This document shows positions 14,982-38,701 of a DNA stretch of 64,000 nucleotides, piece by piece. The DNA is from a virus (lineage: Duplodnaviria; Heunggongvirae; Uroviricota; Caudoviricetes). The stretch covers positions 1 to 64,000 of the IMG/VR virus record IMGVR_UViG_3300045591_000029; one strand, written 5' to 3'. The notes under the pieces are model-generated. The model did not search any database. It had not been told where the DNA came from and was given only the letters and a program-made list of their open reading frames with translations. The position numbers and the translations under genes were made by a program. Numbering within the stretch: the first letter of the stretch is position 1; each line of letters opens with the position of its first letter.

Positions 14982-16478
14982 TTACTCCTTATTGGAGGAG
15001 TCTGCCAACTTGCCACCGAGGAAACCGGTGAGCAAGGTTTTCACATCAATACCGAGGGATTCGCTCAGTCCCTCAGAAACCTGAGCGACATTCTTGATAA
15101 TGTTGCCAGACAGCTTGCTGGTGTCATCACCGAACATCACAATCTTGTCAACATTGGTGTACGCCTGGCCGGTAGCCTGAGCAATAGCAGGCAACTGCTG
15201 GAAGTACAGCTTGAGGGCTTCCATCTGCATATCCATCTTTGCGGCTTCGCCGTACTGCTTCATAGCTTCCGCTTTCTTCATAAGACCTTCGGCTTCTGCC
15301 TCAGCCTTAGCCTGAATCGCAGCAGCCTCAGCTTCACCACGGGCCTTAGTAGCCGCAGCTTCTGCCTCACCCTGAACACGAACAGCTTCAGCAGTAGCAC
15401 GCTGGGCTTCAGCTCTCTGCTCTGCCTCAAAACGCTCGGCTTCCGCAGTCTTCTGACGCTCATACAGATCTGCCTCAGACTGCTTCTGAGTAGCGTACAG
15501 CTTAGCATCAGCTTCCTGCTGGGCAGCATACTTCTTAGCTTCCGCAGTCTTCTTGACCTCAGCCTCCAGAGCACGTTCCTTAATGGCAACTTCGCGCTCC
15601 TTCAGGTCGATTTCCTTTTCCTGACGAGCAATGTCAGCATCTGCCGCAGCCACATCACGCAGTTTACGCTGGTTCTCAGACTCAATCTCCATAGCAGCAT
15701 TAGCCTGAGCCTGCTTGGTATCAGCTTCCTGCTTCAACTGAGCCTTCTGAATAGCCAGACTATTGTTGCGCTTGGCAATCTCTTCCTCAGCCTTTACGCG
15801 GGCATCGTTAGAAGCCTTAGCGTTCTCAGCCTCGGCAACCGCAATCTCACGCTGGGCATTAGATTTAGCGATTGCGGCGTCCTTGCGGATCTGCTCGACG
15901 TTATCAATACCGAGGTTGGTGATAACATCATTGTCGTCAGAGAAGTTCTGGACATTGAAGGAAACCAGTTCCAGACCGAAACGAGCCAGGTCAGGCACAG
16001 CATTTTCCTGCACCTTTTCGGAGAATGCCTTGCGATCACCGACCATCTCGGTCAGCTTCATCTGACCCACAATCTCACGAATATTACCTTCCAGAAGGTC
16101 GTTAATCTTCTGCGCAATCTGCTCACGAGAGACATTTAGGAAGTTCTGAGCAGCAAGAGCAATCATCCCTTCACTCTGACCTACGCGCACAGAAACGGTA
16201 GAATCAACTCGCACATTGATGTATTCCGCAGTCGGCACGGCAGAGCCAGTCTTAACATCAATCTGGATAGCTCCGAGTGCCAGCTTATCCATTCGTTCCA
16301 AGAAGGGAATCTTGACACCAGCCTTACCGACCAGAATACGAGGTTTCTTGTGCAGACCGGAAATGATATAGGCAACATCGGGCGGAGCCTTTACATAACC
16401 AGAAGCCAAGAGGGCGATAAGAGCAATAGCAATAATCACCACAGGGACAAAAGGAAGAATAGTCATCAAAATTTCCAT
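14982..16478 (-). CDS. SPFH/band 7 (flotillin-like) membrane protein
   Basis: N-terminal TM, SPFH core, long Ala/Glu-rich coiled coil; 498 aa. Confidence 0.75.
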   Translation of the reverse strand: MEILMTILPFVPVVIIAIALIALLASGYVKAPPDVAYIISGLHKKPRILVGKAGVKIPFLERMDKLALGAIQIDVKTGSAVPTAEYINVRVDSTVSVRVGQSEGMIALAAQNFLNVSREQIAQKINDLLEGNIREIVGQMKLTEMVGDRKAFSEKVQENAVPDLARFGLELVSFNVQNFSDDNDVITNLGIDNVEQIRKDAAIAKSNAQREIAVAEAENAKASNDARVKAEEEIAKRNNSLAIQKAQLKQEADTKQAQANAAMEIESENQRKLRDVAAADADIARQEKEIDLKEREVAIKERALEAEVKKTAEAKKYAAQQEADAKLYATQKQSEADLYERQKTAEAERFEAEQRAEAQRATAEAVRVQGEAEAAATKARGEAEAAAIQAKAEAEAEGLMKKAEAMKQYGEAAKMDMQMEALKLYFQQLPAIAQATGQAYTNVDKIVMFGDDTSKLSGNIIKNVAQVSEGLSESLGIDVKTLLTGFLGGKLADSSNKE

Positions 16479-16536: not shown

Positions 16537-17223
16537 TTATCCGTAGTAACCTCCATCGGGAGGATCTCGTTTATAAGAGGTGCAAAGTTCAGGGATACAG
16601 CCACAATTAGGATAGGTATACACGCACTTATCGCATCTAATCACAGGCTTTGGTTTTTCAACCTACAGCTGAGCCTTGCACTCTTCTACCTTCTCGTTCA
16701 TTTCTTTGATAACATCATCAAGGAGAACGGGATAGCACTCGTGGGAATCGACTCCCACATGATACATGAAAGGAATTTCATTGTAGAAATTACTTGTTTG
16801 ATGGGTATGACCAAAGAGATTGCAAGTCACCTGCTTAAGTGACTCTTTCTCAAGATTGCCTGTTAAAGTAGGATAATGAGAAGCATAGAAATGATACTTG
16901 CGATAAGTGAAAGCATAAGCGTCAAACACGGGAATACCAGCTCTAAGATAGGCTTCTCTGCGGTTAGCAGTATCATGGTTACCACCAACCACGAGTTTAC
17001 GACCATTCATGCGATTGAGCAAAGCAATCCCTTCCTCAAGCTTATCAGCTCCGCCGAGCATGAGGTCGCCGCAGATAATAAGAGTGTCTTCAGGGGCCAC
17101 GCACTCATTATTCTTCTTTACGATAGTCTCATTCATCTCTTCAACACTCTCAAAACCACGAGCTTTCCAGATAAATTCCTTATCGTGATTATAATGGTAA
17201 TCTGATGATAGCCAAATTTTCAA
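16537..17223 (-). CDS. calcineurin-like metallophosphoesterase with TAG read-through C-terminal Cys-rich extension
   Basis: GDLMLGG...GNHD motifs; ORF ends at TAG 16663-16665, same frame continues VEKPKPVIRCDKCVYTYPNCGCIPELCTSYKRDPPDGGYYG to TAA. Confidence 0.55.
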
Positions 17224-17229
17224 TATAAG

Positions 17230-17934
17230 TCACTTCCTTTTGGGTGTTGTAATGGCTTCAATTCTCGACATTCCATTTTTCATACGCTTGTATACCGAAT
17301 TTTTTGAAATATTATAAATGGAACACCAATCTTTGAAATTGTGAAATTCTCCATTGATTTCAATTAACTTGCTGGCTTCTTCTATGGGGATGTTATTTGG
17401 AATGATTTCCAGTGTTTCTGGATTATATTCCCTAAATATAAATCCCTTTACTGTTTTATATCTGTTACTACCGGATGCGCATTTTCTAATACTAGCTCTA
17501 TCAGTTCCTAACTCATGAGCTGCGGCAGTTATTGTAGGAAAAAATTTCTTTTCTCCACTTGTTTCTGAAATGGCACAAATGGGTGTTGCCAATTTAGCTC
17601 GTACTTCTGGATCATCAAATGGATATTCTGTGTTTAGAGTTTGATTATATCCATGCTAAGAGGTTAAGCTATTATATTCAATGATTGCATCATGCTCTAA
17701 TTTATATCTTTCTTCTGGAGTTTGAATATCTTTTATTAAGATTTGAAAATCAAAATTCTCTATACCATATTTTCTTATGGCTCGATATAATGGATATTCA
17801 TATCCTGCGCGAGATTCGAGACGAGCATTTTGCTAATGTTCATACCACCTTGTTGTAAATCCTCGTGACTAGTCACTGGAACCAATATAGGTTTTATGGT
17901 TAATCAGATTTTCGATTTTATAAATGAAATACAT
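17230..17934 (-). CDS. GIY-YIG homing endonuclease with C-terminal HTH (3 in-frame TAG)
   Basis: MYFIYKIENLINHKTYIGSSD*SRGFTTRWYEH*QNARL...; C-terminal part equals track ORF 17230..17592. Confidence 0.6.
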
Positions 17935-18023
17935 TTTATCACCTTCCATTTATAAATGGAAATTCTTACAGACTCTTTTATTACTTCTGACCTCATCTTT
18001 GATAGTCATTGAAAAACTTATTC

Positions 18024-18557
18024 TTAATGGTGCACACGCACCTCGATATTAGAAAATCCCCAATTGGTCTTAGGAAACTCTTTTTCAGTAGGAATAGAAA
18101 ATCCCTTCTTCATCTTCTTAATTGCGGAATCGGGGATTCTGGCAACGCCAGTCCGCTGAGCATTACGCTCAAGAGCGGTTTCGACAGGAACATCAATGAC
18201 TTCAAAGGTCAATTTGGTATGCGGATCTGCGATCAACCGACCAAGGAGCTTTGCACGAGAAGCGGGGCTAATATGAGTCGCATCCGCAAACACAACATCA
18301 ATATCAAGTTCCATAGCTTCATTAATCTGTCGGACAAATTCGTCGAATACTTCAACTTCTTTGTCAAAGTAGCTATCACGATCGGTCAAGATGGACTGCC
18401 GCACGAAATCTCTGGAAACTACACAAGTGGTGCGATGCTCTTCTTCAATTCGGGCTACCTCTTGCTTCACCCAAGTAGATTTTCCGCTACCGGGTACCCC
18501 AACCATGACTTTCAGTTCAGTTGTCATTCTTTTCGCCTCCATCCATTTTTGCCCCAC
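18024..18557 (-). CDS. P-loop polynucleotide kinase (Pnk-like kinase domain)
   Basis: VMVGVPGSGKSTW Walker A, AAA_33-like kinase layout; 177 aa. Confidence 0.55.
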   Translation of the reverse strand: MGQKWMEAKRMTTELKVMVGVPGSGKSTWVKQEVARIEEEHRTTCVVSRDFVRQSILTDRDSYFDKEVEVFDEFVRQINEAMELDIDVVFADATHISPASRAKLLGRLIADPHTKLTFEVIDVPVETALERNAQRTGVARIPDSAIKKMKKGFSIPTEKEFPKTNWGFSNIEVRVHH

Positions 18558-18792
18558 AATGTGAACAATACTCCCAGAAGTTACTCTTGATTACTTTCTT
18601 ACATACCGGACAAATTCGTTCCGTATGATAATTCATGCCAACTTCAATATCCCATTTACTGTGAGTTACTGGAATAACATCTGCAGCTGGTATTGCCATC
18701 AGTGCAGCAGCACTCACGTACACATCGTCCCAACGACCATGTATGAAATTGGCTTGCGATACAGCCACAGCACGGTCAATGTATTCTGGCAT
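18517..18792 (-). CDS. zinc-ribbon protein
   Basis: CPVCKK...CSHCGAKM; 91 aa. Confidence 0.4.
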   Translation of the reverse strand: MPEYIDRAVAVSQANFIHGRWDDVYVSAAALMAIPAADVIPVTHSKWDIEVGMNYHTERICPVCKKVIKSNFWEYCSHCGAKMDGGEKNDN

Positions 18793-19054
18793 TAGCTAAC
18801 CTCCGTTCAACTTCAGCCATCACCCAAGCAATATCTTCATCAGATACCTCGGTTTCAAACTGAATAGAGCAGTTCTCACCTTTTACTCTTGCTTCAATGA
18901 GCAAATTAACAGCATCTTCAAGGTCCTGTTGATGCTCTATGAAAGGAGAAAAAGCTCGATTCTCTTGAGCACAAGGACATGGGACAGGAGACCAAAGATC
19001 GGATTTGCATCTTGGGTTATCGTGATAATCTAACATACCATGCGGATGAGTCAT
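18776..19054 (-). CDS. hypothetical protein
   Basis: 92 aa intact ORF. Confidence 0.4.
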   Translation of the reverse strand: MTHPHGMLDYHDNPRCKSDLWSPVPCPCAQENRAFSPFIEHQQDLEDAVNLLIEARVKGENCSIQFETEVSDEDIAWVMAEVERRLANARIH

Positions 19055-19220
19055 TACTTTTCCTCCTGTTCAATAAACTGCTGAATGATAGCCATTGATT
19101 TTTCAATATCATTTAGCTCGTCATCAATGAACACGCCGCTCCAATCCAGACTATCAATAATGCCATCGAGGGTTTCCAACGCTTTAACAGCGTCATTTTT
19201 AGTGACCATACCTCATGACT

Positions 19221-19262
19221 TCCTTTCTTAACTTTCTATAAATATTATAATATATATTTATA
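19221..19262 (-). promoter_or_regulatory. same promoter-like motif
   Basis: tcctttcttaactttctataaatattataatatat. Confidence 0.45.
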
Positions 19263-19305
19263 ATAAAATCAAAAGGTTCTAAGAATTAGAACCTTTTGAT
19301 TTTAT

Positions 19306-19803
19306 TTAATTAGTTTGATCAGTAAAATAGACTTGTGAAAGTTCACCAATGTCATCAATCTCACAATCGTTTATTTCAAATGGCCAATCTACCCATAAAT
19401 CAATATGATTTTCTAAAAAATTTAATGGATCTTTCTTAAAAGTTTTATAATCTTCCTCAGATAGCTCAAGTTCTCCATGGTAATATCCGCCTCGTAGATA
19501 ACCAGTAACCCAATCTACTTCTGCATCTATATTAACTTTATGAGTTACCTCAGTTGGATTGTCAAGAGAGATATAATATTTTTTGCCATTGATTTTTTTC
19601 CAGAATGAATAACTACTTTTTGGATAGCCAACTTTTTTTTCTAGAATATCTTCCTTGGTATTAGATTGCAACACAATAACTGGGTTTTTACGCGGATCTT
19701 GACCAATTGGGTGAAAATCTACTCCATCGGCGCCGGTAATTTCAAACCATTCTTTCCATCCTGTTCCTTTTTGCCATTCAGCCATTATTATTCCTCCTGA
19801 CAT
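19306..19803 (-). CDS. hypothetical protein
   Basis: 165 aa intact ORF. Confidence 0.45.
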   Translation of the reverse strand: MSGGIIMAEWQKGTGWKEWFEITGADGVDFHPIGQDPRKNPVIVLQSNTKEDILEKKVGYPKSSYSFWKKINGKKYYISLDNPTEVTHKVNIDAEVDWVTGYLRGGYYHGELELSEEDYKTFKKDPLNFLENHIDLWVDWPFEINDCEIDDIGELSQVYFTDQTN

Positions 19804-20612
19804 TGGATTAGAGATTCGATATACTCGCGTCCTTCTCCGACAAATAGCGGGATACTTTTATCAATTTCCCAGCTAGAGCGAGTTACACCATCGGTCTCAG
19901 TTGTAACCTTGATGCAACAAGAGCCATGCTTATACATAGGATGAAAGTTTTCCCAAGAAATCCCTTTCTCCGTGATTAGCATCTCTTTGATTTTCTCACA
20001 AGACTTACCTTGGAGTTCTTTATGAGAGAAATTAGCCTGGCCTACCATTTGAATAGAATTGCGGGTTGCATCTAGCTGACGCCAATAGACGAGGTTGGTG
20101 ACCTCTTCTTTGGGAATATTGAAGCAACGAGCATCAAACATGGCGCCCATTTGTGTTTTTACTGCATAAGTCTGGCCCAAATCATCTTGTGGGTAAGGGT
20201 TATCCATAGTCGCATGAGCGGCATAATAATCTAGATTCCTATGCCGGACTCCTTCATTAAATGCTTTATTGAAAGCCATCGTTGCCATAGAAGCAGCGAT
20301 AGAGCACATTTTCTGTACCTCGTAATCAAACCAAGCAGAGCTGTTGAGCCGCTTGTAATCAACAAGGATAAGAGTGATTTCATCACTTTGTGTATACCCT
20401 AACACGCACCCTTGAATGTTTTCACAGAGATATTTCATGGTATCCTGCATTGTGTTAATCAATACATCATCAAAAGGCTTGCTGAAACCACGGGTAAAGG
20501 TGTGGAAAGCTTTACCGTCAATGCGAATTGCAACCGGTGTACGACGCATTAGCTTAGTCTTAGGAACGCTTTCGTAATCTTTCATTCTTTTAGCCAGATC
20601 TGACGTATCCAT
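19788..20612 (-). CDS. Thg1-like protein (tRNA-His guanylyltransferase family; 3'-5' nucleotidyl transferase for tRNA 5'-end repair)
   Basis: VAIRIDGKAFHTFTRGFSKPFDDVLINTMQDTM...LGYTQSDEITLILV matches Thg1 core (RxDG..FH.F...KP.D...QSDE). Confidence 0.6.
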   Translation of the reverse strand: MDTSDLAKRMKDYESVPKTKLMRRTPVAIRIDGKAFHTFTRGFSKPFDDVLINTMQDTMKYLCENIQGCVLGYTQSDEITLILVDYKRLNSSAWFDYEVQKMCSIAASMATMAFNKAFNEGVRHRNLDYYAAHATMDNPYPQDDLGQTYAVKTQMGAMFDARCFNIPKEEVTNLVYWRQLDATRNSIQMVGQANFSHKELQGKSCEKIKEMLITEKGISWENFHPMYKHGSCCIKVTTETDGVTRSSWEIDKSIPLFVGEGREYIESLIQCQEE

Positions 20613-20613
20613 A

Positions 20614-21387
20614 TTATACCTCCTTTATAAATACACTAGTTTCTAACAATAAATCTTCTAAACAAATATCTTGTTCGTGAGTATATGGAATCCTGATAAT
20701 CTTTATTCCGTTAGTAGAACACCATTGATTTTTTATTTTGTCATGCAATACTGTTTTTTTGAATTGTTCTTTGGTATTCCATCCTCGTCCGACATAGGAA
20801 AAATGTTGTTCTCCATCAAACTCAATAATGTATTCATCGTTTACATAAAAATCAAAACGAGCTAGTTGCTTAGTATCAGGGAAAACACAATCAGGAAAGG
20901 TTTTTTCTTTTTCAAAGCTGATATTATTAGCAGTTAGTATCTTTTCTATTGTGTATGCTCCATGAGATTGCTTCATACAGCCACAGGAGAATGTTTTCCC
21001 GCTTACCAAGTTGTAACTACGGACTTCGGTCTCATTTCCGCAATCGCATAAACAATGCCATACTACCTGTCCATTCAGTCTTTTACTAGTTGGATATTGA
21101 GCTACCAATTTGCCGAATCTCTAATTAGATAAATCTTTAATTGGAGTTTTCTTGCCGGCACGCTCTTTCTACAAGCATCCACAAGACTATGTTAATCCTT
21201 TTCGCAGGTTAGAACTAAGCACATCTTTTTCATTTCCGCAGTCGCAAATACAATGCCAGATAGTCTCTCCTCGGCTATCTTTTCCAGCGATATTAAGTGC
21301 TGTTAAGCGTCCGAATTTCTGTCCAGTAATATCAATTCTTCTTCCCATAATCTCATAAAACTCCTTTATATTTATTTTTTCTACCAT
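20614..21387 (-). CDS. putative homing endonuclease of the FGRLT...WxCxCDCGN zinc-module family (three modules; 3 in-frame TAG); joins track ORFs 20614..21108 and 21187..21387
   Basis: frames identical (573 nt apart), intervening sequence ...KGLT*SCGCL*KERAGKKTPIKDLSN*RFGKLVAQYPT... has only TAG stops. Confidence 0.5.
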
Positions 21388-21497
21388 AAATGAATTTTAT
21401 GAAATAGAGATTAAACTTTTCTGTCCTTAGATATTCATGGCTGGTAGAATCTTCCCCTTTCTTATACATATATTATATAATAAAATAATAAAAAAAT

Positions 21498-21520
21498 CAA
21501 GGGAGCAAAAAGCTCTCTTG
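21498..21520. terminator. hairpin caagggagc-aaaa-agctctcttg flanked by T/A runs (bidirectional)
   Basis: 9-bp stem with one G.U, poly-A upstream and poly-T downstream. Confidence 0.45.
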
Positions 21521-21622
21521 ATTCTTCTTTTAATCCTTGCTCTTTCCGAGATTACTAGTCTTGAAATAGCTGCCAATCCAACCGAGCGTACCGGCGCAAA
21601 GTGGAATCATATCCTTGGTAAA

Positions 21623-21793
21623 TCAAGTTGTCTGGAACAAAGTATTTAGACCATCAGTGAGAATATTACCAATGGTAATAGAAGCCACCTATCCTCCGAA
21701 ATAGCACAGCCAAAAAGAGATAAAGGGGAGAACGAGTACTGTTGCGATTATCAAAGCAATAGCTCCCAGAATAGCCAGAAAATCATCCATCAT
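21623..21793 (-). CDS. small membrane protein with one in-frame TAG
   Basis: MMDDFLAILGAIALIIATVLVLPFISFWLCYFGG*VASITIGNILTDGLNTLFQTT. Confidence 0.3.
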
Positions 21794-21808
21794 AATAAAC
21801 TCCTTATA

Positions 21809-22090
21809 TTAAAATAGAATATCGCGCTCAAACTGAACGCTATAAGCAGAGCTGGGATGGCTTTTACATCTATTAACCCATTCACAATGCCCCAGCACAG
21901 CTTCTTCTCTAGTGGCATAACGAGCCACAATAATCATATTATGGTCAGCGACCCAAACCGCGGTTTCATAACCCTGGTCTGCGGTTAGACAAGTGTCGAT
22001 AGTATAATCATCGACTTGATCGCGCCCAACGAGATCAGCGTCGTGATTGTTGCAAGCAATGCCAAACATTAAACTCATAAGATTATCCAT
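21809..22090 (-). CDS. hypothetical protein
   Basis: 93 aa. Confidence 0.4.
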   Translation of the reverse strand: MDNLMSLMFGIACNNHDADLVGRDQVDDYTIDTCLTADQGYETAVWVADHNMIIVARYATREEAVLGHCEWVNRCKSHPSSAYSVQFERDILF

Positions 22091-22814
22091 TGCGTTTCCT
22101 CTTTTCCTTCTTTTTCGTAGCTACATCAATAGTCTGTCGATGTACAGAGTAGATTTTTGAGGTAAGCCCATTCTTCATCAATTTATTTAGATTGACCGGG
22201 CTGTAGTTAATTGCGTCAGAGCAAACATTCAGATGTCTGTCGTCATTTTTATGACGACGATCATGGATATGACCATGAATATTAAACACCCAAGGCATCA
22301 TAGGAAGAGGTTCATGGGAGAGAATAAGTTTTTCTCCAATCATGAGAGGCCCCTCATAGATCTCGTCAAAGAGATTATTGTCTGCGGAAACTTCCCAATA
22401 ATCAAAAGGAAAATTGAAGTCATATACATCAGTAATGGAATACTGACAATCGGGGTAGATGCGTTTCATTTCATCAAGAGCCTCAGATTTCTGAAAGACT
22501 TCTTTGGGGAACTTACGAGAAATCTTTTTGCGCTCATAATTACTGCGGCCGGCGTCATGGTTCCCCATAATGAGCACCTTATAACCACGAAGTTTAGCGC
22601 ACATAGCCGGGTCGCCGCAGTCTCCCAAGATAATCAGAACATCTTTCTTACCAACTTTGCTATTGATAAGTTTAACCTGCTCTTCATCGGAAGGACGACC
22701 TGGAGTTCCAGCGGCGAGTTCTTTATCACCAAAATGAGGATCTGAATATACCCAAGTTGTCTGTCCATTCCATCTTTCGTTAAAAACTTTATACAGTCCG
22801 GGAATCATCACCAT
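22083..22814 (-). CDS. calcineurin-like metallophosphoesterase
   Basis: GDCGD...GNHD...HGHIH motifs. Confidence 0.7.
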   Translation of the reverse strand: MVMIPGLYKVFNERWNGQTTWVYSDPHFGDKELAAGTPGRPSDEEQVKLINSKVGKKDVLIILGDCGDPAMCAKLRGYKVLIMGNHDAGRSNYERKKISRKFPKEVFQKSEALDEMKRIYPDCQYSITDVYDFNFPFDYWEVSADNNLFDEIYEGPLMIGEKLILSHEPLPMMPWVFNIHGHIHDRRHKNDDRHLNVCSDAINYSPVNLNKLMKNGLTSKIYSVHRQTIDVATKKKEKRKRNG

Positions 22815-23551
22815 TCCTCCTTCTTAGAAAGGTCAATTGCGTCGGCAGCATTAAAGATATGTTCATCAAAGCTATCTAAATCTAACAATACAGTATAACC
22901 AGTATACCAGCTTGCACAGTCCAAATCAACTTTGTGGTCTTGTGCATACCACCAAGCTCCACCATCCCAATCTGGAATTTCATCGCTCCAATTATTTCGT
23001 TTTAACAGATATGGAATAGGAGTATGACCGTGCACGCAAATTTCTTTATCACCAAAAATAGGTTCCTTAGAGTGCCAATGGCATCTATCCCAAAGTAGAT
23101 CGTCGTCATTAGGGATAGCATCATCCTGCATTGGATTAAAGCCAGCATGACAGAGATGGATAGTGATTCCCTGTTCATTTACATATTTCTTATAGGTTGG
23201 TAGTTTCTTGAGATAATTCCACCAGCCAGTTTTCATTGGTTCTAAAAGCCAGTCAAGGAAAGTTTCTCCACCACCATTTTGAGAAAGCAAAGCAAAATTT
23301 TTCCCAAGGACTCCGCATCCTTCTCTCCGCACTTCATCTTCCATGGCTTTTACCAGCATATCTTCGTGATTACCTTTAAGATAGATAAAACGCTTATCTT
23401 GAGCAACTGCCTTGATAGTCTCCCAAGGATTTGGACCTCTATCTCCGGCATCGCCGAGAAAATAAACCGTATCATCGGGTTGTAAGAAATCCTGAATCTG
23501 CTTCAATAGATCCAATCTACCGTGCAAATCTGAACACGCATATGTTGCCAT
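22808..23551 (-). CDS. metallophosphoesterase (PP2B/PrpE-like Ser/Thr phosphatase or Ap4A hydrolase family)
   Basis: DLHGR...GDAGDRGP...GNHE...HGHT motifs. Confidence 0.7.
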   Translation of the reverse strand: MATYACSDLHGRLDLLKQIQDFLQPDDTVYFLGDAGDRGPNPWETIKAVAQDKRFIYLKGNHEDMLVKAMEDEVRREGCGVLGKNFALLSQNGGGETFLDWLLEPMKTGWWNYLKKLPTYKKYVNEQGITIHLCHAGFNPMQDDAIPNDDDLLWDRCHWHSKEPIFGDKEICVHGHTPIPYLLKRNNWSDEIPDWDGGAWWYAQDHKVDLDCASWYTGYTVLLDLDSFDEHIFNAADAIDLSKKEEW

Positions 23552-23700
23552 TATTCTTCCATCTCCTTTTCAATGATTTCAATAGCTTCTTGCAAATCGT
23601 TAGCAAGACAAATTGGAGCTACCCACTCATTAGCTTCTGCCCATTCAAGATCAAGCTTGAGATTCTCAAGTAGTGAAAATAAATCCATTATATACCTCCT

Positions 23701-23946
23701 TTAGTGTAACTTCATCAGATCAGAAAGATAGCACCAATCTTTGATATACTGAGGGAAAAACTCCATGTACTGTTCGCCAGAATCTTCGATAAAATGGATA
23801 TGTCCATCACGCCAAGTCTGCACAGAAACAATAGAGGCTTCAGGATAAGCATATCCACGAGTAGTTTCTTCATCGAGACGGATAAACACCTTACTACTAG
23901 GCACAGGCAATTCACCATTCTTAATGTTATGGAACATTTCTTTCAT
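23701..23946 (-). CDS. hypothetical protein
   Basis: 81 aa. Confidence 0.4.
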   Translation of the reverse strand: MKEMFHNIKNGELPVPSSKVFIRLDEETTRGYAYPEASIVSVQTWRDGHIHFIEDSGEQYMEFFPQYIKDWCYLSDLMKLH

Positions 23947-24037
23947 ACTCTTTCTCCCCTCTCTTATACATATATTATATAATATATTATTATAAAAATA
24001 AAGAGACTCTTACTGGCTAGGTAAGAGTCTCTTGCAT

Positions 24038-24424
24038 TTAGTTTTCTAATCCGATGGGAACGACATCCATGACACTATCGGGGTACATACTCCATTCGCC
24101 CCAAGCTTTCTTACTACCTTGAATTTCAGCTAGCTTTTGATTAGCATCAATCATATCCGCTACATAGATAAGCGTATCATCGTTAAACTGGTGTGACTGT
24201 GACATTTGCGTAATAATTGTTCGTTGAGTTTCAAAAGAAGCTAGAAAGCTTCTATACTCGCAGGTAGTTAAAAGCATTGCCAATGCAATAATAACTGCTA
24301 CCACTCCAGTAAGAAGCGTACTTACAAGATAGAGTGTGCTATCCCAGCAACTCTTATTGAGTGCCTTCAATGAAACAACACAGACGATGGTACAAATAAA
24401 AAGAATAATACCCCAGTAAAGCAT
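24038..24424 (-). CDS. membrane protein
   Basis: two TM helices; 128 aa. Confidence 0.45.
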   Translation of the reverse strand: MLYWGIILFICTIVCVVSLKALNKSCWDSTLYLVSTLLTGVVAVIIALAMLLTTCEYRSFLASFETQRTIITQMSQSHQFNDDTLIYVADMIDANQKLAEIQGSKKAWGEWSMYPDSVMDVVPIGLEN

Positions 24425-24438
24425 AATCTATACTCCTT

Positions 24439-24591
24439 AATCTTTAAATTGAGAGGCAAAGTGTAAGAGTATTAAAGAGAGAGTCCCTGTCGTAAAACCG
24501 GTAAGATAGACGGCTGAAGGAGGAACTATTGTTCCTAGAATAGAACCAGCAACAATAGTAGCCAGCCACAAACCATAGAGGATAATTCTCA
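24439..24591 (-). CDS. small membrane protein (50 aa, below track threshold)
   Basis: MRIILYGLWLATIVAGSILGTIVPPSAVYLTGFTTGTLSLILLHFASQFKD with RBS. Confidence 0.3.
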
Positions 24592-25322
24592 TACCTCGTC
24601 CTGCGCCTCCTCCATATCGGGAGCAGTCTCAGTCTCTTTGATAATACCCTCTAAATAATTTATATTCAAGTTATCAAACTCCTTATAAGATATTCTAACA
24701 AGTTTTATATTGTGGGTTTTGCAATACTCGGTTTTATAAGCATCTCTTTTTTGGATAATAGCCAAAGAGTCTTTTCTGTGTTGCCATCCAACTTCATGCT
24801 GTTCTCCATCATATTCAATAAGGCATATAAGTTTATTATTATTGTCAAATATTGCATAATCAAAGCTCGCAGATTTTCCACTATCTGGAAATATACAGTC
24901 TGAAATCTTATACTGTGAGATAAAGTGAATATTCATCTAAGTCAACAGTTCGTTAATTTTTAATTCGGCCTTCGACTTCAAGCATCCACATGATTGTGTA
25001 TTACCATCCATTAAATTATCTGTTTGAACAATAACAATATTACCGCACTCACATAAACATTTCTAACTTCCTGGCGGTACTCGCTCTAAGACAGTGAGTT
25101 TTCCAAATTTTTTACCTTTTAGGTCATAGGTTTTGAAATGTATTGCTTTATCGCATCCACAAGACCCGGTATGTCCATTTCGTAGAAAATCTGTTCTTAC
25201 TTCTGTTATATTCCCACAATCACACTAACATATCCATCTAGTATATTTATCATTGCGCTTAGGAGCACGTTCGAGCGCTACTAATTTCCCGAAGCGTTGA
25301 CCAGTTAAATCCAATGCTTTCA
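24589..25322 (-). CDS. putative homing endonuclease of FGKL...CDCGN family (3 in-frame TAG); track ORF 24589..24936 is its C-terminal part
   Basis: MKALDLTGQRFGKLVALERAPKRNDKYTRWIC*CDCGN...GKKFGKLTVLERVPPGS*KCLCECGN...LT*MNIHF... paralogous to 20614 gene. Confidence 0.5.
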
Positions 25323-25404
25323 TATATAATACCTCCTTGGTTTTCTATTATATATGAAATCTCTGGAGGGTATATTATTTATTTTTGCCCTCCAGAGATA
25401 AATA

Positions 25405-26667
25405 TTACTCTTGAGCTTCCTCAATATCAGGACTGTCAGAAGTTTCCTTAATGATACCTTCAAGGACGCGGAACTCGTAAGTCTTAGACTTGAAAGCAGT
25501 GAAAGTGCGACGGTTGACGATACGAACCACAACGCCCTCTTTAACATGAGTTTTGCCGATAGGATCGGCCAAGTCCTCGAAATACTTGTTAATGCGGTCC
25601 TGCAGGTCCTCGGCAGTAGTGAACTTGAAGTTCTCAATCACCGGGACACGATTAAAGCCATGCTTCTCACACCAAGCGGTAATCTCGTCAGGAGTCCACT
25701 CACGCTGACCGTTCTCGGAAGTGATGCGATAAATCCACATATGAGACTCACCGGGCTTGCAGCCGTAGGAGAAGATAGACTTTTTACCGAACAGCTTTTG
25801 GAAAGCCTTATCTTTTAGCTTGGAGTTATCGCCGATAGGCATGATGGTATCGTTCTCAGAGGGGCCGTAGTACCCTACTACCTCGTAGAAGACCTCCATA
25901 CCGGGATCAAGATGGGGTTTCAATGCCTCATGGTGAGACATACGGAATAGATCATTGCCGTAGTAGCCCTGAGAGTTCTCAGTTACAACACACCGGCGCG
26001 TACCGAGAACATAAGCCTGCTTCAGACGCTTCTTCATATGAAATAGACGACGGAAGAAGCCATTGGGAAGCTCAGCAAAGGTGTTCATGGAACGCTGAGA
26101 AGTGCCATGCATCTTAAGAGTCATATTCAGCTCATCACCTGGACGGAACTTATCCAGATTGTATGCAAGCTGCTCAGTGTCAGTATGCATTGCAAACTCA
26201 GGATAGGTAATACCCTCTGCCTTACGACCCTTGTAGGAAGTTTTAGGAGTGGTGCTCGGAGTCTTACGCTTAGGAATATACTTACGGCAGAACTCCTTGT
26301 CATTGATAGTGTTTACCTTGTCGCCGTCCTCCCAGTGCTGATCGCCAAAAGTCTCATAGATGCGCTCAAGAGCGATGACGATGCCAGAACTCTCGTTGCC
26401 ACGAAGCTTGATAGCCCGCACGTGAGAACTATTTTCCAAGTATCCGCCCTGAGGAGTGCCATCGAGATTTTTTCGATATAAGGTGAAAGCATCACCAAAC
26501 CATCTCTCAATTTCTCCGTCGGTAGGAAGATAAAGCACTAGCTCATTTTCTTTCATGTTGGGTCCAACAATAACCCCTTCGTTAAAACAATCTGCCAACC
26601 ACAGATTATCAGAATTAGGGTCTTTATGGAGATTATTTAGTTTTGTCACTAGAGCGTAATAAGCCAT
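25405..26667 (-). CDS. RNA ligase, Rnl2-like family (nucleotidyltransferase)
   Basis: motif I LKMHGTS (KxHG as in T4 Rnl2 KIHGT); 420 aa. Confidence 0.6.
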   Translation of the reverse strand: MAYYALVTKLNNLHKDPNSDNLWLADCFNEGVIVGPNMKENELVLYLPTDGEIERWFGDAFTLYRKNLDGTPQGGYLENSSHVRAIKLRGNESSGIVIALERIYETFGDQHWEDGDKVNTINDKEFCRKYIPKRKTPSTTPKTSYKGRKAEGITYPEFAMHTDTEQLAYNLDKFRPGDELNMTLKMHGTSQRSMNTFAELPNGFFRRLFHMKKRLKQAYVLGTRRCVVTENSQGYYGNDLFRMSHHEALKPHLDPGMEVFYEVVGYYGPSENDTIMPIGDNSKLKDKAFQKLFGKKSIFSYGCKPGESHMWIYRITSENGQREWTPDEITAWCEKHGFNRVPVIENFKFTTAEDLQDRINKYFEDLADPIGKTHVKEGVVVRIVNRRTFTAFKSKTYEFRVLEGIIKETSDSPDIEEAQE

Positions 26668-29895: not shown

Positions 29896-30729
29896 TTATG
29901 ATAACTCTTTATATTCTTTTGCCCAAGGAGTATCATCAAAATAAAAGTTAGGAGATTTATTTAGCCACCATTCATGCTTAAATGTTTTTTCTCCATTCCA
30001 ACGGTTCCAAATTGTATCTAACTCCTCAATATCTTGAAATAGCATCTCGCAATGAGGTCTCTCAACTCGATCAGAGTGAAAATGAGCAAAAAGCCATACC
30101 TCCCAATCAACTTTACTCTTGATATCCTCAAGCCAAAGTTCCATACTTTTATCTACTTTGGATTGGTCAAGACCAGAGAGAAACAAATCTCTTGGCTCCC
30201 AAGAAATGGGACAAGTATGGGTTAGGACAAAATCATAACGCTTACCCTCAACCCATGCGCCAATTTCATCCATTTCCTTTTTGGTTAGCTGTTCATCCTT
30301 GAACCAGCCAGTCCAACTATCTGTATCTTCTGGACGATCTCTAAGTCGATACCACTTATCTACGGAATACGCTCCGCCGATAGCAAAGACAGAGTAGCCA
30401 TGAATGTTATAACTCTCTCCATCAAAGAGGTATCTGATATTCGGAAACTCTGGCTCATAATAGACGCCACCATCGACGTCTTCATCATACATTTGCTCCA
30501 TGGAAAGATTTTCTGGACGCTCTTCATGGTTTCCGCGAACCGCGTAAATGCGGAAGCCTGTATTGTTTACGTTTCTCTTATTCTTGCGATCGGTCTTATT
30601 CAGATAGAAATTAAGCCCCATATCGCCAAGAATAATCAATGCAGTTTCATCAGGAGGATATCCAATATGACTAAGTCTTTCAAGGACTTGACCATGAGTG
30701 TCTCCTGTAACGAGCCAGTTCTTAATCAC
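29896..30729 (-). CDS. calcineurin-like metallophosphoesterase
   Basis: GDTHG...GDMG...GNHEERP motifs; 277 aa. Confidence 0.7.
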   Translation of the reverse strand: MIKNWLVTGDTHGQVLERLSHIGYPPDETALIILGDMGLNFYLNKTDRKNKRNVNNTGFRIYAVRGNHEERPENLSMEQMYDEDVDGGVYYEPEFPNIRYLFDGESYNIHGYSVFAIGGAYSVDKWYRLRDRPEDTDSWTGWFKDEQLTKKEMDEIGAWVEGKRYDFVLTHTCPISWEPRDLFLSGLDQSKVDKSMELWLEDIKSKVDWEVWLFAHFHSDRVERPHCEMLFQDIEELDTIWNRWNGEKTFKHEWWLNKSPNFYFDDTPWAKEYKELS

Positions 30730-31481: not shown

Positions 31482-32285
31482 TCACTTAGTAATTTCCTCT
31501 AAGAGGGCTTTCTTTACAATATTATATTGTACTTCGTTGAGTAAAGTATCAACTTCTGTATCCACATCATTCTTATTATGAGTGTTGCAAAACTCGTCTG
31601 CCTCGTTTACAACTAACTTTAGATATTTATCAGCAATTTTTCGAGCCTCATCTAAAGAATATTTACCAAGTTTAATGTCCATGATAAAATCTTTATCTTT
31701 TGGATAAAGACATTCTTCATACGGGTAACCGGCGAGGTAAGAACTAATGAAATTCTGAACTCTTACTAGATGTGAAACTTGTTTTGGATCGTATCCATAC
31801 TCGGCTAGTACTTCCAATTTGCTAGGATATTCATGCTCCATAGCATGATATTTCTCCATAGCGATACCCTTCATGGTCTTAACTGCGCCATATGGAGAGT
31901 AGTGAGCAATCTGCTCGCGCGCCGCAGTCAGACGACCCCATTCACTTTCAAAAAGAGGGTTTACCCAAGCATAAGGGGTAAAGAGAATTTCAATGAAGTT
32001 GAGATTCTGTTTGCGGAAGGTGGCGAGCATCAATCGAATATCCTTCAGATCGGTATGCTCGTTGTTTGCTCTTACATGAGTGGTGCTGATAGGCTTCTTG
32101 TTAAGAACCACTTCATCAAAAGTAGGAGTAACAATCAGCTTTGTATCAACATCACTCTTAGGAGTTTCAAGACCATAGTTCTGAGAGCCTTGCAGGAAGA
32201 TACCGACGATTCTAGATTCGTCGAATCTTTGCAAACTTTCATCGAGATGGTCATAGACTCTACTCATAACATCAGTCATCACCAA
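31482..32285 (-). CDS. Pol-beta-superfamily nucleotidyltransferase
   Basis: LQGSQNYGLETPKSDVDT (GS..DxD motif); 267 aa. Confidence 0.5.
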   Translation of the reverse strand: MVMTDVMSRVYDHLDESLQRFDESRIVGIFLQGSQNYGLETPKSDVDTKLIVTPTFDEVVLNKKPISTTHVRANNEHTDLKDIRLMLATFRKQNLNFIEILFTPYAWVNPLFESEWGRLTAAREQIAHYSPYGAVKTMKGIAMEKYHAMEHEYPSKLEVLAEYGYDPKQVSHLVRVQNFISSYLAGYPYEECLYPKDKDFIMDIKLGKYSLDEARKIADKYLKLVVNEADEFCNTHNKNDVDTEVDTLLNEVQYNIVKKALLEEITK

Positions 32286-33807: not shown

Positions 33808-35340
33808 TTAGTGAATCTGAGCGTAACGCTCGCTGTCCAGCTTCTCAAGGACCAGATCGAGTCCGTCCTTGCCGCTGAGAATCTCCTGAATCATAACAGG
33901 GCTAAAGCCACTTACATAGCTAAAGCCGTCACCGATTGCGGGAATGTTGTTATTGCGGGCGTTCAGGTTCCAGAAGATGCAGCTAGGTATCTTGTAACCG
34001 TAGCGTGCCCACTTAGCCCTCATAGCCTCAAAGAGAGTCTGGATGGCATCGCTGTGCATACCATACCCACAGCCACCCCGATCAGTAGAGTTACTGGTAA
34101 CACACTGGTCAAACTCCATATCAGAGAAGATATAGACGCGAGTAGGCATATCCTCAGGCTTTACACTTTGCTTCATTGCGGTGCTGAGCAGCATATCGAA
34201 GACAGCTTCGATATTAGTATTCATACCCCAATCTGCACCAATGCAACGGCACAACTTATCGGTAATGTCTGCTCCCTCGAACTTCACCAGCTTAGGATGA
34301 CCAGAGAAGGTAATGAAGTGGTTGGCGAAAGGACCATGCGCCTTATCTGCGATGTACGCACCCATAGAAACCGCAGCCTCCATAGGAACACCGGTCATAG
34401 AGCCAGAAACATCGACAACAGCAATGCCATTCTCGGTATTATCACCGTAGTAGTTAGGAAGGTTCTCCCAATACTTCTGAAGCATCAGACGATCAGGATC
34501 GCCCAATCCCTTACGATTGGCTTCAAAGGCACGATGTGCAATGTCGTGAGGATAGAGAGCACTGGCATTAACCTTAGTCTCAGTATCCTTAGCGAAAGCC
34601 TCATACTTAGCCTTAATCATATCGCGGCGAGCAAACGCATTGCGATAAATTACGCCGGCACGAGAAGGAATCTTATCGAACTCAATCTCGTCCCACCGAT
34701 TCTCAGACATAAGGCGCTCAACGATGCGGATACGCTCACGCAGAGTAGAGAGAGTCTTACGGTACTGCTTGGCAGTCATGCCGAAGTGATTACGGGTAAT
34801 CACCGCCAGATGGCGAGATTCCTTAGAGCTGGTATTCTCAGACTTCAACCACTTAGCAAGCAGAGAAGGAGTCTTACAAGAAACATCCAAGGCCAGCTGA
34901 TGACGCATCAGATTGAAAGCGTCCTTCTCCAGAGGAGTGCCAACGAAGATATACAGGTCGTCCCAGCGACCGTACTCAGGCACGAACCGGAGGTTACGAC
35001 GCATAGCTTCAGTCTCATAGGAAGCCATCCAATGAGTCACAACGCGGAAGAAGCGACGCTCACCCTGTCCACCACGCACATCGCGCAGATAGAATAGGCA
35101 CTTCAGGGCATGAGCCTCATCCTCCTTAAAAGCGGCCTTAAACAGAGTGATGCAATCCTCGTCAGAGCGATTGCGGTAAGAGCCGCCGAGCGCAAACAGA
35201 TCCATAAGCCCATTGAGAGTAGACTTATGGGTGACAGCACCATTTTCAGTCAGAGTATAATTGTCGTTCTGCTTCATAGCATTGAGAAAAGTGTTCATAG
35301 TATCAGTCTCCTTTTGATTTTTAGTTTCTCCCTTGGACAA
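33808..35340 (-). CDS. rsr: Ro60/Rsr-like RNA-binding protein (TROVE domain plus C-terminal vWA with MIDAS DVSGSM)
   Basis: N-terminus ...TENGAVTHKSTLNGLMDLFALGGSYRNRSDEDCITLFKAAFKEDEAHALKCLFYLRDVRGGQGERRFFR fits TROVE consensus; C-terminus VVDVSGSMTG vWA; 510 aa. Confidence 0.6.
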   Translation of the reverse strand: MSKGETKNQKETDTMNTFLNAMKQNDNYTLTENGAVTHKSTLNGLMDLFALGGSYRNRSDEDCITLFKAAFKEDEAHALKCLFYLRDVRGGQGERRFFRVVTHWMASYETEAMRRNLRFVPEYGRWDDLYIFVGTPLEKDAFNLMRHQLALDVSCKTPSLLAKWLKSENTSSKESRHLAVITRNHFGMTAKQYRKTLSTLRERIRIVERLMSENRWDEIEFDKIPSRAGVIYRNAFARRDMIKAKYEAFAKDTETKVNASALYPHDIAHRAFEANRKGLGDPDRLMLQKYWENLPNYYGDNTENGIAVVDVSGSMTGVPMEAAVSMGAYIADKAHGPFANHFITFSGHPKLVKFEGADITDKLCRCIGADWGMNTNIEAVFDMLLSTAMKQSVKPEDMPTRVYIFSDMEFDQCVTSNSTDRGGCGYGMHSDAIQTLFEAMRAKWARYGYKIPSCIFWNLNARNNNIPAIGDGFSYVSGFSPVMIQEILSGKDGLDLVLEKLDSERYAQIH

Positions 35341-35489: not shown

Positions 35490-35558
35490 TGGAGCGAACG
35501 GTGAGATTCGAACTCACGCCCTTACGGGTCACACGGCTTTGCAGGCCGGGATCTTAAA
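35488..35558 (-). tRNA. atypical class II tRNA-like gene, anticodon loop CUGCAAA (nominal GCA) with long variable arm
   Basis: acceptor gcgaacg/cgttcgc, T arm gtgag-ttcgaat-ctcac, D arm and AC stem irregular. Confidence 0.35.
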
Positions 35559-35581
35559 CCACTTGACTACGTTCGCATAAG

Positions 35582-35597
35582 AGCGGCAAAAGCCGCT
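35582..35597. terminator. short hairpin gagcggc-aaaa-gccgctt downstream of lipoprotein gene
   Basis: 7-bp stem directly after stop codon. Confidence 0.3.
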
Positions 35598-35848
35598 TAA
35601 TCGGTCATCAAGACCACATTGGAGATATGAGTAAGATAGGTTACGCCATCAATTTTAATTTGAATGGTATCACCATCATCAAAGTCTTTCCAAGACTGGA
35701 CTTCACCTTCGATAACTGTTCCATCCGGAATTACGATAACCGCTCGATTGAATGTATAGTTGGTATCGAGGATTTGACGATTGCCGCATCCCGCCAAACA
35801 AAGTGTTAAACTAATTGCCGCGGCAAAGGCCACAACTCTTTTTTTCAT
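35597..35848 (-). CDS. small lipoprotein
   Basis: signal peptide with lipobox LAGC (MKKRVVAFAAAISLTLCLAGCGN). Confidence 0.5.
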   Translation of the reverse strand: MKKRVVAFAAAISLTLCLAGCGNRQILDTNYTFNRAVIVIPDGTVIEGEVQSWKDFDDGDTIQIKIDGVTYLTHISNVVLMTD

Positions 35849-35874
35849 TTTTTTTGTTACCTTTCAATGAATTA

Positions 35875-35957
35875 TGGTACCCAAGGTGGGATTCGAACCC
35901 ACATGCCATAGGCGGAAGTTTTTGAAACTTCTGTGTCTACCATTCCACCACTCGGGC
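35875..35957 (-). tRNA. tRNA-Leu(CAA)
   Basis: hand fold: acceptor gcccgag/cttgggt with G.U pairs, D arm gtggaatggtagacac, AC loop UUCAAAA, long variable arm, T loop ttcgaat, CCA encoded. Confidence 0.8.
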
Positions 35958-35959
35958 GA

Positions 35960-36265
35960 TTAAATAAAAGCCCAGAGAATATCAAAAGCACGTTTGTGTT
36001 CATCATTCTCCAAAGGATTATTGGCAGGAATATCTGCTAATTTTCCGTAGCAGTCCATCAGAATAGCGCTATCTTCGAGATTACCATAGAAACAATCTTT
36101 AACATTGTAGGTTGCTGTGTGCGGACCGCAGATGGTTTTCATAAAACTTTTCTCTGTCTTGAGCCAAATACTTTTAGCAGATTGAACCACATAAAGTTCG
36201 TCCTCAGTTAAATGCAAAACTTTAAGTTCCATACCTTCAACAACCTTTCTGTAATTATTATACAA
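35960..36265 (-). CDS. hypothetical protein
   Basis: 101 aa. Confidence 0.4.
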   Translation of the reverse strand: MYNNYRKVVEGMELKVLHLTEDELYVVQSAKSIWLKTEKSFMKTICGPHTATYNVKDCFYGNLEDSAILMDCYGKLADIPANNPLENDEHKRAFDILWAFI

Positions 36266-36288
36266 AAAATTTTTACGAAAATCAAAAA

Positions 36289-36380
36289 TGGCGGAGGGCG
36301 AGAGACTCGAACTCTCACGCCGATGTTCTCGGTTACTGGCGGTTTTCAGGACCGCTCCCTTGCCAATTAGGGTTAGCCCT
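36289..36380 (-). tRNA. tRNA-Ser(UGA), class II (anticodon loop CCUGAAA, C33 instead of U33)
   Basis: acceptor ggagggc/gccctcc, G73, long variable arm, T arm gagag-ttcgagt-ctctc. Confidence 0.65.
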
Positions 36381-36419
36381 CCAAATAGAGCAGTTTTATA
36401 TCTTACTCAGGATAGCGAC

Positions 36420-36752
36420 TTACAGGCTGTCAAGCAGATCGTTCTTGGCAGTGATAACCTCGTCCAGCTCATAGATGGCGTCATCTTTATAATCGCACAT
36501 CTTGTCGAGATATGCCTCGGCATTCACGTGAGCCCAATAGGCCTCATCAACCTTTTGATTGGCACGGGCAACACGCTTCTTGGCAATCTTCTCTGCACAC
36601 CGCAGAGCAGCAAGCTGCTTACCCTTCTCCAGAGAGAACTCGTCGCCATCATGACAGACTGCAATACCTCGGACAGTACGGCCGGCATAGGTGGAAACCG
36701 CAATCACGCGAGTGCCATTAGTATAGAACTTGTACTTCTCAATCGGATACAT
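36420..36752 (-). CDS. hypothetical protein
   Basis: 110 aa. Confidence 0.45.
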   Translation of the reverse strand: MYPIEKYKFYTNGTRVIAVSTYAGRTVRGIAVCHDGDEFSLEKGKQLAALRCAEKIAKKRVARANQKVDEAYWAHVNAEAYLDKMCDYKDDAIYELDEVITAKNDLLDSL

Positions 36753-37407: not shown

Positions 37408-37460
37408 TTACTCACCATCCTTTATTTTCATAAACGAGCATTTAGCTCGCTAGTGCCAAA

Positions 37461-38678: not shown

Positions 38679-38701
38679 AATTAAATTTCCTCCTAAATAG
38701 A

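Follow-up and report, generated by a model that had tools for sequence, protein, structure and literature searches.

Why should a tailed phage carry a gene for a Thg1-like protein (TLP), and why in the company of genes for a polynucleotide kinase (Pnk), several calcineurin-like metallophosphoesterases (MPEs), and an RNA ligase? The question is posed by an uncultured, tRNA-rich member of the Caudoviricetes with a genome of about 145 kb, analysed here over positions 1 to 64,000 of IMG/VR record IMGVR_UViG_3300045591_000029 (the window, 64,000 nucleotides in length). An earlier note, made from the letters alone, had described these genes as an RNA-repair-like set resembling the tRNA-repair enzymes of phage T4. 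We find that the named open reading frames (ORFs) form an RNA end-repair gene cluster that is real and non-random. The best available reading, which predicts function from family membership, is that the cluster is probably a phage kit for mending breaks in RNA, chiefly tRNA, by healing, rebuilding, and sealing the ends.

Close relatives of the phage in IMG/VR occupy contigs of 138–148 kb. A megablast comparison with 50,697 phage records returned no match to the window, and near-identical cultured relatives were not among them. The minus strand holds nearly all genes of the window, and all window features given below lie on it. Upstream of the repair set are genes for DNA metabolism (thymidylate synthase, an ATP-dependent DNA ligase, topoisomerase II subunits, and PhoH); downstream is an array of tRNA genes.

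Components of the cluster

Every repair ORF listed in the earlier note was found on the minus strand at the position given for it, and each matches its expected family with the Pfam profiles Thg1, RNA_ligase, AAA_33, or Metallophos. The two assignments on which the note's proposal turned both hold: the protein encoded at 19788 does belong to the Thg1 family, and the ligase is of the RNA rather than the DNA type.

The TLP gene (19788..20612) encodes 274 residues that match Pfam Thg1 (PF04446, 4.8e-31) and phrog_4717 (2.5e-90), and the motifs RIDGKAFH, KPFDD, and QSDE, cited in support of a Thg1-like protein, are present in the translation. Its closest solved relative is the Bacillus thuringiensis TLP (BtTLP, PDB 4KGK; E 7e-60), as against E 8e-9 for human Thg1. 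The alignment with BtTLP falls into two collinear blocks, separated in the phage protein by about 30 inserted residues (121–156). The catalytic carboxylates are kept: D32 (in RIDG) and D77/E78 (in QSDE) align with 4KGK and 3OTB, matching the three carboxylates of the Thg1 palm domain (D29, D76, and E77 in the human enzyme). Opposite the human segment HINNLYN the phage protein reads EEVTNLVYWRQLD, so the eukaryotic anticodon-recognition motif is absent. Because BtTLP is the closest relative, the carboxylates are retained, and the HINNLYN segment is replaced, the sequence places the phage protein in the bacterial-type TLP branch of the Thg1 superfamily.

BtTLP is a template-dependent 3′-5′ polymerase that favours 5′-truncated tRNAs as substrate (PMC3061083). 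The phage protein is collinear with it over the whole length, the insertion apart, and is predicted to share its polymerase activity. Literature searches did not find a biochemical study of a phage TLP. The small ORF whose end overlaps the TLP stop codon (19306–19803) was considered as a conserved partner and rejected: it occurs in the close family only and has no family match.

The kinase gene (18024..18557) encodes 177 residues that form a kinase domain only, with no fused phosphatase. The call of a P-loop polynucleotide kinase is borne out by matches to AAA_33 (3.8e-16), to phrog_505 ("polynucleotide kinase"), and to the NCBIfam model for the kinase region of bacterial Pnkp (bacter_Pnkp, 4e-9). 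The translation contains the P-loop GVPGSGKST, the catalytic SRD aspartate (VSRDFVRQ) that follows strand 2, and the lid arginines of RNAQRTG. Its relatives in the PDB are PSTK (4e-6), T4 Pnk (1LY1, 1e-5), and the kinase of Clostridium thermocellum Pnkp (CthPnkp; 4GP6, 5e-5). We take the enzyme to be of the T4 Pnk/CthPnkp type, with RNA 5′-OH ends as its predicted substrate; specificity is not settled, since PSTK, which has the best PDB score, shares the fold and is a tRNA-dependent kinase.

The four calcineurin-like phosphoesterases named in the note all score above the Pfam Metallophos cut-off, and their translations contain the metal-binding motifs. MPE1 (16537..17223) comprises a core of 186 residues (16663–17223) followed by a TAG codon and a Cys-rich extension of 41 codons; it matches phrog_547 (7.7e-40), shows the motifs DYH, GD, GNHD, H, and GHTH, and weakly matches an "anti-phage phosphoesterase" model. 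MPE2 (22083..22814; phrog_547, 9.5e-29; motifs DPH, GDCGD, GNHD, and GHIH) is a paralogue of MPE1 (hhalign 98.3%). MPE3 (22808..23551; Metallophos 7.6e-11), whose gene overlaps that of MPE2 by 7 nt, is of the PPP type (lambda-phosphatase/ApaH-like): it matches phrog_246 (NinI/lambda-phosphatase type), its PDB relatives are ApaH and PP1, and its motifs are DLH, GDAGDRG, and GNHE. MPE4 (29896..30729; phrog_1649, 1.1e-21) reads AHFH at the last metal motif, for which the family pattern is GHxH. One or more of these enzymes may be the partner that removes 2′,3′-phosphates. Both the kinase and MPE3 also match parts of phrog_8238 (737 positions, labelled "RNA ligase"), the kinase over its first ~136 positions and MPE3 over residues 179–254.

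The ligase gene (25405..26667) encodes an ATP-dependent enzyme that had been described as an Rnl2-like RNA ligase with the motif KMHGT. The motif and the RNA ligase call stand; the Rnl2 family does not. The protein matches phrog_968 and Pfam RNA_ligase (PF09414, 6.4e-10), the latter limited to residues 183–387, and NCBIfam TIGR02306 (RNA_lig_DRB0094, from Deinococcus) spans residues 9–191. Classification came from profile comparisons using homologues gathered from phage loci. A joint profile of 18 phage ligases, that of the window included, matches NgrRnl, the RNA ligase of Naegleria gruberi, over its full length (3e-71); the subfamily profile alone finds NgrRnl as its sole match in the PDB, through the OB domain only (residues 23–113, 6e-5); and hhalign aligns the subfamily with an NgrRnl-like cluster over the full length (99.7%, E 3e-25). 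Since all three comparisons point to NgrRnl, the sequence identifies the ligase as a divergent member of the Rnl5 (NgrRnl/DraRnl) architecture: an N-terminal OB domain, then the nucleotidyltransferase domain, and no C-terminal domain. It differs from NgrRnl and its Deinococcus radiodurans counterpart DraRnl in that the phage subfamily is about 80 residues longer and has KMHGT in place of KLDGS as motif I. Membership of the T4 Rnl2 type, in which a specific C-terminal domain follows the nucleotidyltransferase domain and no N-terminal OB module precedes it, is ruled out: T4 Rnl2 aligns with the same joint profile through the nucleotidyltransferase domain only (5.5e-11), and the motif I lysine, K185 of KMHGT, follows an N-terminal OB-type module.

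Residues K185, E262, E377-G378, and K393/K395 (motifs I, III, IV, and V) are invariant across the 18 phage ligases, and the predicted activity is the sealing of 3′-OH/5′-PO4 nicks in RNA duplexes. The subfamily occurs in 379 phage records, mostly of actinophages, where it is annotated plainly as "RNA ligase".

The 3′ end of the ligase gene has a history of its own. A cassette of about 770 bp with a homing-endonuclease-like ORF is inserted there (24589–25417, compared with positions 7090–7240 of locus L004). The original last ~19 codons and stop codon of the ligase now end the endonuclease ORF, and the present 3′ end of the ligase gene is a replacement copy, synonymously recoded.

Two further genes widen the set as first noted. 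One (31482..32285) encodes a probable Pol-beta nucleotidyltransferase of the RlaP type. Its own score with Pfam RlaP (PF10127) is 22.3 bits, just under the cut-off of 23; it matches phrog_388, and the motif GSQNYG...DVD can be read in its sequence. Homologues 80% identical occur in loci L008 and L009, and hhalign relates its homologue cluster (97.9%, E 5e-13) to a cluster that has Pfam RlaP at 1.6e-20. RlaP adds one or two nucleoside monophosphates to damaged RNA 3′ ends and restores aminoacylation (PMC12776372).

The other (33808..35340) encodes a Ro60-like (TROVE plus vWA) RNA-binding protein of 510 residues. Sequence assigns it to DUF2828, DUF7788, and phrog_850 ("RNA-binding protein", 8e-128), and a sequence search of the PDB gave no match. 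An AlphaFold2 model from an alignment of 32 sequences has a predicted local distance difference test score (pLDDT) of 74. When the model was searched against the PDB with Foldseek, the top nine matches were all Ro60/TROVE proteins, including that of a Thermus phage; each alignment exceeds 530 columns, and the TM scores are 0.42–0.50. The model thus gives the protein a Ro60-like fold over its full length, with a HEAT-like helical ring and a C-terminal vWA domain, and it is probably an accessory of the extended repair context. In known systems Ro60 (Rsr) works with Y RNA; Rfam detects no Y-RNA-like partner near this gene, and the adjacent 1.5 kb is full of small ORFs. The family is very abundant in metagenomes: at least 8000 candidates were retrieved, all below E 1e-5.

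Recurrent linkage to TLP genes

Close relatives share the order MPE1–Pnk–TLP–MPE2–(MPE3)–ligase, as do two lineages whose TLPs are 66% identical to that of the window. In more distant phages (Pnk 41–52% identical), the Pnk and MPE1 pair, sometimes with the ligase, again lies within 10 kb of a TLP gene. When all ORFs within 8 kb of TLP genes were clustered (203 loci, or 116 groups at 85% TLP identity, giving 4110 ORF clusters), the commonest same-strand neighbours were the MPE1-type phosphoesterase (16 groups), Pnk (13), and RlaP (two clusters, 12 and 7 groups), followed by the MPE4-type phosphoesterase (10) and NgrRnl-like ligases (two clusters, 10 and 8).

Enrichment was measured with hidden Markov models (HMMs) of four repair families, applied within 8 kb of 115 dereplicated phage TLP loci and of 44 control loci anchored on tRNA-His. 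At least one repair family is present at 52 of the 115 TLP loci and at 3 of the 44 controls; at least two are present at 25 and at none, respectively. The linkage between TLP and repair genes is not due to chance and is evolutionarily recurrent, and the RNA-repair-like set that was first noticed in a single sequence is to this extent real.

In the window itself, strong terminator-like hairpins are found on the coding strand at 24033–24001 and at 14971–14952, and a consensus-level scan of that strand found none between 24001 and 14971. The second hairpin follows the gene for an SPFH/Band-7 protein. This arrangement is compatible with a single transcription unit from MPE3 to the SPFH gene.

Could the same genes be unrelated accessories that have collected in a variable early region? 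On this account only the ligase and TLP would touch RNA, each independently; the MPEs would act on proteins, as the NinI-like Ser/Thr phosphatases do, or on nucleotide second messengers in anti-defence, and the substrate of the kinase would not be RNA ends. The region does look variable: scattered among the set are mobile homing-endonuclease genes and small ORFs that are clade-specific, and relatives have NAD-salvage genes in the same place. MPE3 is nearest to ApaH and PP1-type enzymes, and MPE1 has its weak anti-phage match. More than half of TLP loci, moreover, are without these neighbours within 8 kb. Mere assortment does not, however, account for finding the same families at the top of 4110 clusters of TLP neighbours, at about six times the control frequency, or for the Pnk and MPE1 pair that accompanies TLP genes in lineages below 50% identity. 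Nor do the parts look unrelated: the kinase has T4 Pnk and the CthPnkp kinase domain among its relatives, and shares phrog_8238 with MPE3. Finally, PADLOC reports no significant match of any component to a known defence system. We regard chance assembly of accessories as rather improbable.

A proposed kit for broken RNA

How might the parts work together? Families, intact catalytic motifs, shared direction, and recurrent linkage are matters of observation; substrates, order of steps, and any counter-defence purpose would follow from the known biochemistry of the families and from the T4 precedent. One or more MPEs could strip the 2′,3′-cyclic phosphate or 3′-phosphate left by metal-independent ribonucleases, and the Pnk-type kinase would turn the 5′-OH into a 5′-phosphate. 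RlaP could then restore one or two nucleotides lost at the 3′ end. TLP would activate the 5′-phosphate and refill missing nucleotides in the 5′ strand of a helix, with the 3′ strand as template, after which the NgrRnl-type ligase would close the resulting 3′-OH/5′-phosphate nick. The adjoining Ro60-like protein, the phage tRNAs, and transfer-messenger RNA (tmRNA) may be further means to keep translation going. That a host defence that cleaves tRNA is the trigger is a suggestion drawn from the T4 precedent, and any division of tasks among the phosphoesterases is likewise conjectural.

Several observations weigh against repair as the shared purpose. Repair would not need as many as four phosphoesterases, of which MPE3 belongs to the Ser/Thr-phosphatase/ApaH type. 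It is also hard to see what templated 5′ fill-in would contribute once the anticodon loop has been cut in the classic way. A role in counter-defence against host anticodon nucleases is something that we infer. The linkage also has its limits: the enrichment test is biased towards the TLP set, its HMMs having been derived from TLP neighbours; 63 of the 115 TLP groups are without these neighbours within 8 kb, many of the loci having short flanks; and homing-endonuclease genes and small ORFs are interspersed, so that the genes form no tight operon. The large flanks available for phages Bc431v3 and Fnu1 show no kinase or ligase adjoining the TLP gene. Conversely, most Mycobacterium phages that have the ligase are without TLP, since genus counts find the ligase subfamily in 296 records and TLP in 11.

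Is tRNA-His the client?

The array downstream of the repair set (35490..53836) was delineated with ARAGORN, Rfam, and acceptor-stem analysis. The earlier count of about 27 tRNA genes is matched closely: ARAGORN finds 31, 27 of them canonical, with fully paired acceptor stems and encoded CCA, and four atypical. The array also includes tmRNA (45841..46181; Rfam RF00023, 76 bits, E 9.5e-28, full model), which ARAGORN missed. These tRNAs are the presumed clients of the repair enzymes.

One of them raises a different possibility. The gene for tRNA-His(GUG) (46800..46876) starts one base past the CCA of tRNA-Arg; that base, at −1 (46877), is T, residue 73 is C, CCA is encoded, and there is no genome-encoded G−1. 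Because base −1 is T, RNase P would be expected to release tRNA-His without G−1, and such a tRNA might serve TLP as a substrate for addition of G opposite C73. The T(−1)/C73/CCA arrangement recurs in a second clade (seven contigs) whose tRNA-His differs in sequence. Perhaps, then, TLP mainly matures the phage's own tRNA-His, and the kinase, phosphoesterases, and ligase are functionally separate from it.

This reading has biochemical precedent, in that BtTLP also performs template-dependent N−1 addition on tRNA-His (PMC3061083), and Anantharaman et al. in 2010 posed the question whether phage Thg1 serves tRNA-His maturation or RNA repair, leaving the former open (PMC2904730). Two other TLP-positive phages likewise have no encoded G−1: TsarBomba (A−1, A73) and locus L197 (T−1, T73). 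Comparison across phages nevertheless points the other way. T is found at −1 of tRNA-His in phage T5 and in Serratia phage CHI14, both of which we judge to be without TLP by the genus counts that the search for TLP gave, and many T4-like phages align with an Escherichia coli tRNA-His query from position 2 only, consistent with there being no G at −1. Conversely, Bacillus phage G and Fusobacterium phage Fnu1 have TLP yet encode G−1. A pattern scan of IMG/VR yielded 60 tRNA-His loci; of 58 sampled for base −1, and counted irrespective of TLP status, 36 have G there and 22 do not. Among the phages compared, then, there is no link between the presence of TLP and the missing G−1, and in 80 IMG/VR loci no tRNA-His lies within 10 kb of the TLP gene. 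Nor is the feature peculiar to tRNA-His in this phage, where a T precedes nearly every tRNA. In addition, many TLP phages infect alpha-proteobacteria, whose own tRNA-His naturally is without G−1.

BtTLP favours truncated tRNAs over −1 addition (PMC3061083), and maturation of tRNA-His does not explain why genes for Pnk, phosphoesterase, RlaP, and ligase are enriched near TLP genes. As the main task of TLP, with the other enzymes set apart, it seems unlikely to us; it is possible in this phage, and not supported as the reason that phages carry TLPs. A milder version, in which the phage itself determines the identity of its tRNA-His alongside repair (the gene being encoded without G−1, which TLP would add after RNase P), is a little easier to entertain, although it too is doubtful. 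If true, the phage tRNA would need a phage enzyme in order to decode histidine codons, and a bacterial-type TLP would have its first assigned physiological role.

As an observation apart from these readings, phage tRNA-His genes without G−1 are common with or without TLP (46877 in the window; T5, L262; CHI14, L263; TsarBomba, L267; and IMG/VR loci L081–L140).

Mismatched acceptor stems

TLPs of protist mitochondria edit tRNA 5′ ends, and the phage TLP could in principle do the same for phage tRNAs whose first acceptor pairs are mismatched. Four of the 31 tRNA-like genes have mismatches in pairs 1–3: an amber suppressor (U1.U72, kept in a second clade), tRNA-Asn (A3.A70), tRNA-Cys(ACA) (pairs 1 and 2), and a Met-like gene (C3.U70). 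That frequency is not significantly above the 21 of 423 seen in other phage loci, the acceptor stems of the 27 canonical tRNAs are without a single mismatch, and no nuclease was identified for the removal of mismatched 5′ nucleotides. For the suppressor, a weak 1:72 pair together with G73 is a known feature of glutamine identity, so no editing would be needed. Editing therefore fails as an explanation, its canonical clients being paired and its mismatches not significantly more frequent than the baseline, and we consider it highly improbable.

At 47955–48029, 49254–49319, 48088–48159, and 44053–44122 are four AT-rich tRNA-like genes whose acceptor stems are imperfect and which do not encode CCA. 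They include the array's sole genes for tRNA-Asn (GUU) and tRNA-Gly (GCC). An extra T brings the anticodon loop of the Asn gene to 8 nt, as it does in the close relatives L124 and L092; in three other relatives, L083, L132, and L138, the loop has the normal 7 nt. A GC-rich tRNA at 40913–40986, with a perfect acceptor stem and CCA, also has an 8-nt anticodon loop, GTTAAAAG; ARAGORN gives it a four-base anticodon, "taaa", and Rfam scores it at only 36 bits.

Comparison with known systems

The classic phage precedent is T4, in which Pnkp and Rnl1 repair tRNA in answer to the PrrC anticodon nuclease, the T4 phosphatase being a fused HAD domain. The logic is shared: phage-encoded end healing, by 5′-kinase and removal of the 3′-phosphate, precedes ATP-dependent sealing, and the two kinases are sequence relatives. 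Here, however, the kinase stands alone, the phosphatase would come from among the calcineurin-type enzymes, and the ligase is of the NgrRnl/Rnl5 type rather than Rnl1. The present phage also clusters two end-rebuilding enzymes, TLP and RlaP, with these activities. To our knowledge T4 is without TLP. It does encode an RlaP homologue, NrdC.11 (PMC12776372).

The combination of kinase, calcineurin-like phosphoesterase, and adenylyltransferase recalls bacterial Pnkp, as in the C. thermocellum Pnkp/Hen1 system. In the phage these functions reside in separate polypeptides, the ligase belongs to another family, and no Hen1 methyltransferase was seen.

The nearest match in composition is with jumbo phages. 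Iyer et al. in 2021 described a repair kit of ATP-dependent RNA ligases, polynucleotide kinase, phosphoesterases, RlaP, sporadic Thg1, ROT/TROVE proteins, and many tRNAs (PMC7824862), which is the parts list of this phage. Differences are that this phage is not a jumbo phage, that nearly all of its parts lie in one same-strand stretch of about 20 kb, and that it has four calcineurin-type phosphoesterases, where the account of jumbo phages stresses HAD or 2H enzymes. Earlier, Anantharaman et al. found bacterial Thg1 to be associated with polynucleotide kinase and RNA ligase, and suggested a part in RNA repair, in phage too (PMC2904730). Sets of this kind have thus already been described by comparative genomics from the Aravind laboratory, and this phage is a further example; it adds a case, not a new principle.

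The value of the case lies in its compactness. For addressing the physiological role of bacterial-type TLPs, this phage is a compact and genetically tractable candidate. The cluster would allow tests both of 3′-5′ polymerisation in tRNA repair during infection and of which host ribonucleases create the need.

Probable read-through of TAG codons

One coordinate in the earlier note, 16537, leads to the genetic code of the phage. It is not the stop of a standard ORF, since the standard MPE1 ORF ends with TAG at 16663; it is, though, the end of a conserved in-frame extension, the frame being open for 41 codons past the TAG. Despite many substitutions, the TAG, the open frame, and the terminal motif SYKRDPPDGGYYG are retained without exception among close relatives. 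ATH follows the TAG in most of these, so the extension could not start independently. The read-through product aligns end to end with a continuous ORF of 267 residues in locus L071 (48% identity).

Other features point the same way. The phage encodes a tRNA with a CUA anticodon (49146–49236), of class II with a long variable arm and G73; its U1.U72 mismatch is that already mentioned. The gene for a lysozyme-amidase-SLH protein (11343–12764) contains four in-frame TAG codons, with Pfam domains spanning them, and three homing-endonuclease-like genes (17230–17949, 20614–21396, and 24589–25347) contain three or four each. TAG serves as the stop codon of only 4 of 56 long minus-strand ORFs. Given the conserved MPE1 extension, the CUA tRNA, and the TAG-interrupted lysozyme-amidase-SLH and endonuclease genes, it is very probable that at least part of the genome uses TAG as a sense codon.

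Other neighbours

Genes for DNA repair also lie near the RNA-repair set: a T4 DenV-like pyrimidine-dimer glycosylase (27947–28351), a protein of the uracil-DNA-glycosylase superfamily (55966–56643), and a separate ATP-dependent DNA ligase (4793–6004). The NAD-salvage genes of relatives encode a nicotinamidase/isochorismatase, a nicotinate phosphoribosyltransferase (NAPRTase), and an NAD synthase, and occupy the TLP region at 3125–6233 of L010 and 832–1593 of L150; the window has no such genes at that position.

The last gene of the co-directional unit (14982..16478) encodes the SPFH/Band-7 (flotillin-like) protein (Band_7, 2.2e-18). Clusters with Band_7 or MVP_shoulder occur near TLP genes in 6 and 8 groups, and in Fnu1 a "prohibitin" gene follows the TLP gene at a distance of two genes (about 0.6 kb). 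SPFH/Band-7 proteins, some with the shoulder domain of major vault protein, thus recur near phage TLP genes in unrelated lineages; in addition to the window, examples are found at 4671–7124 of L035, 5596–6465 of L056, and 21389–22198 of L266 (Fnu1).

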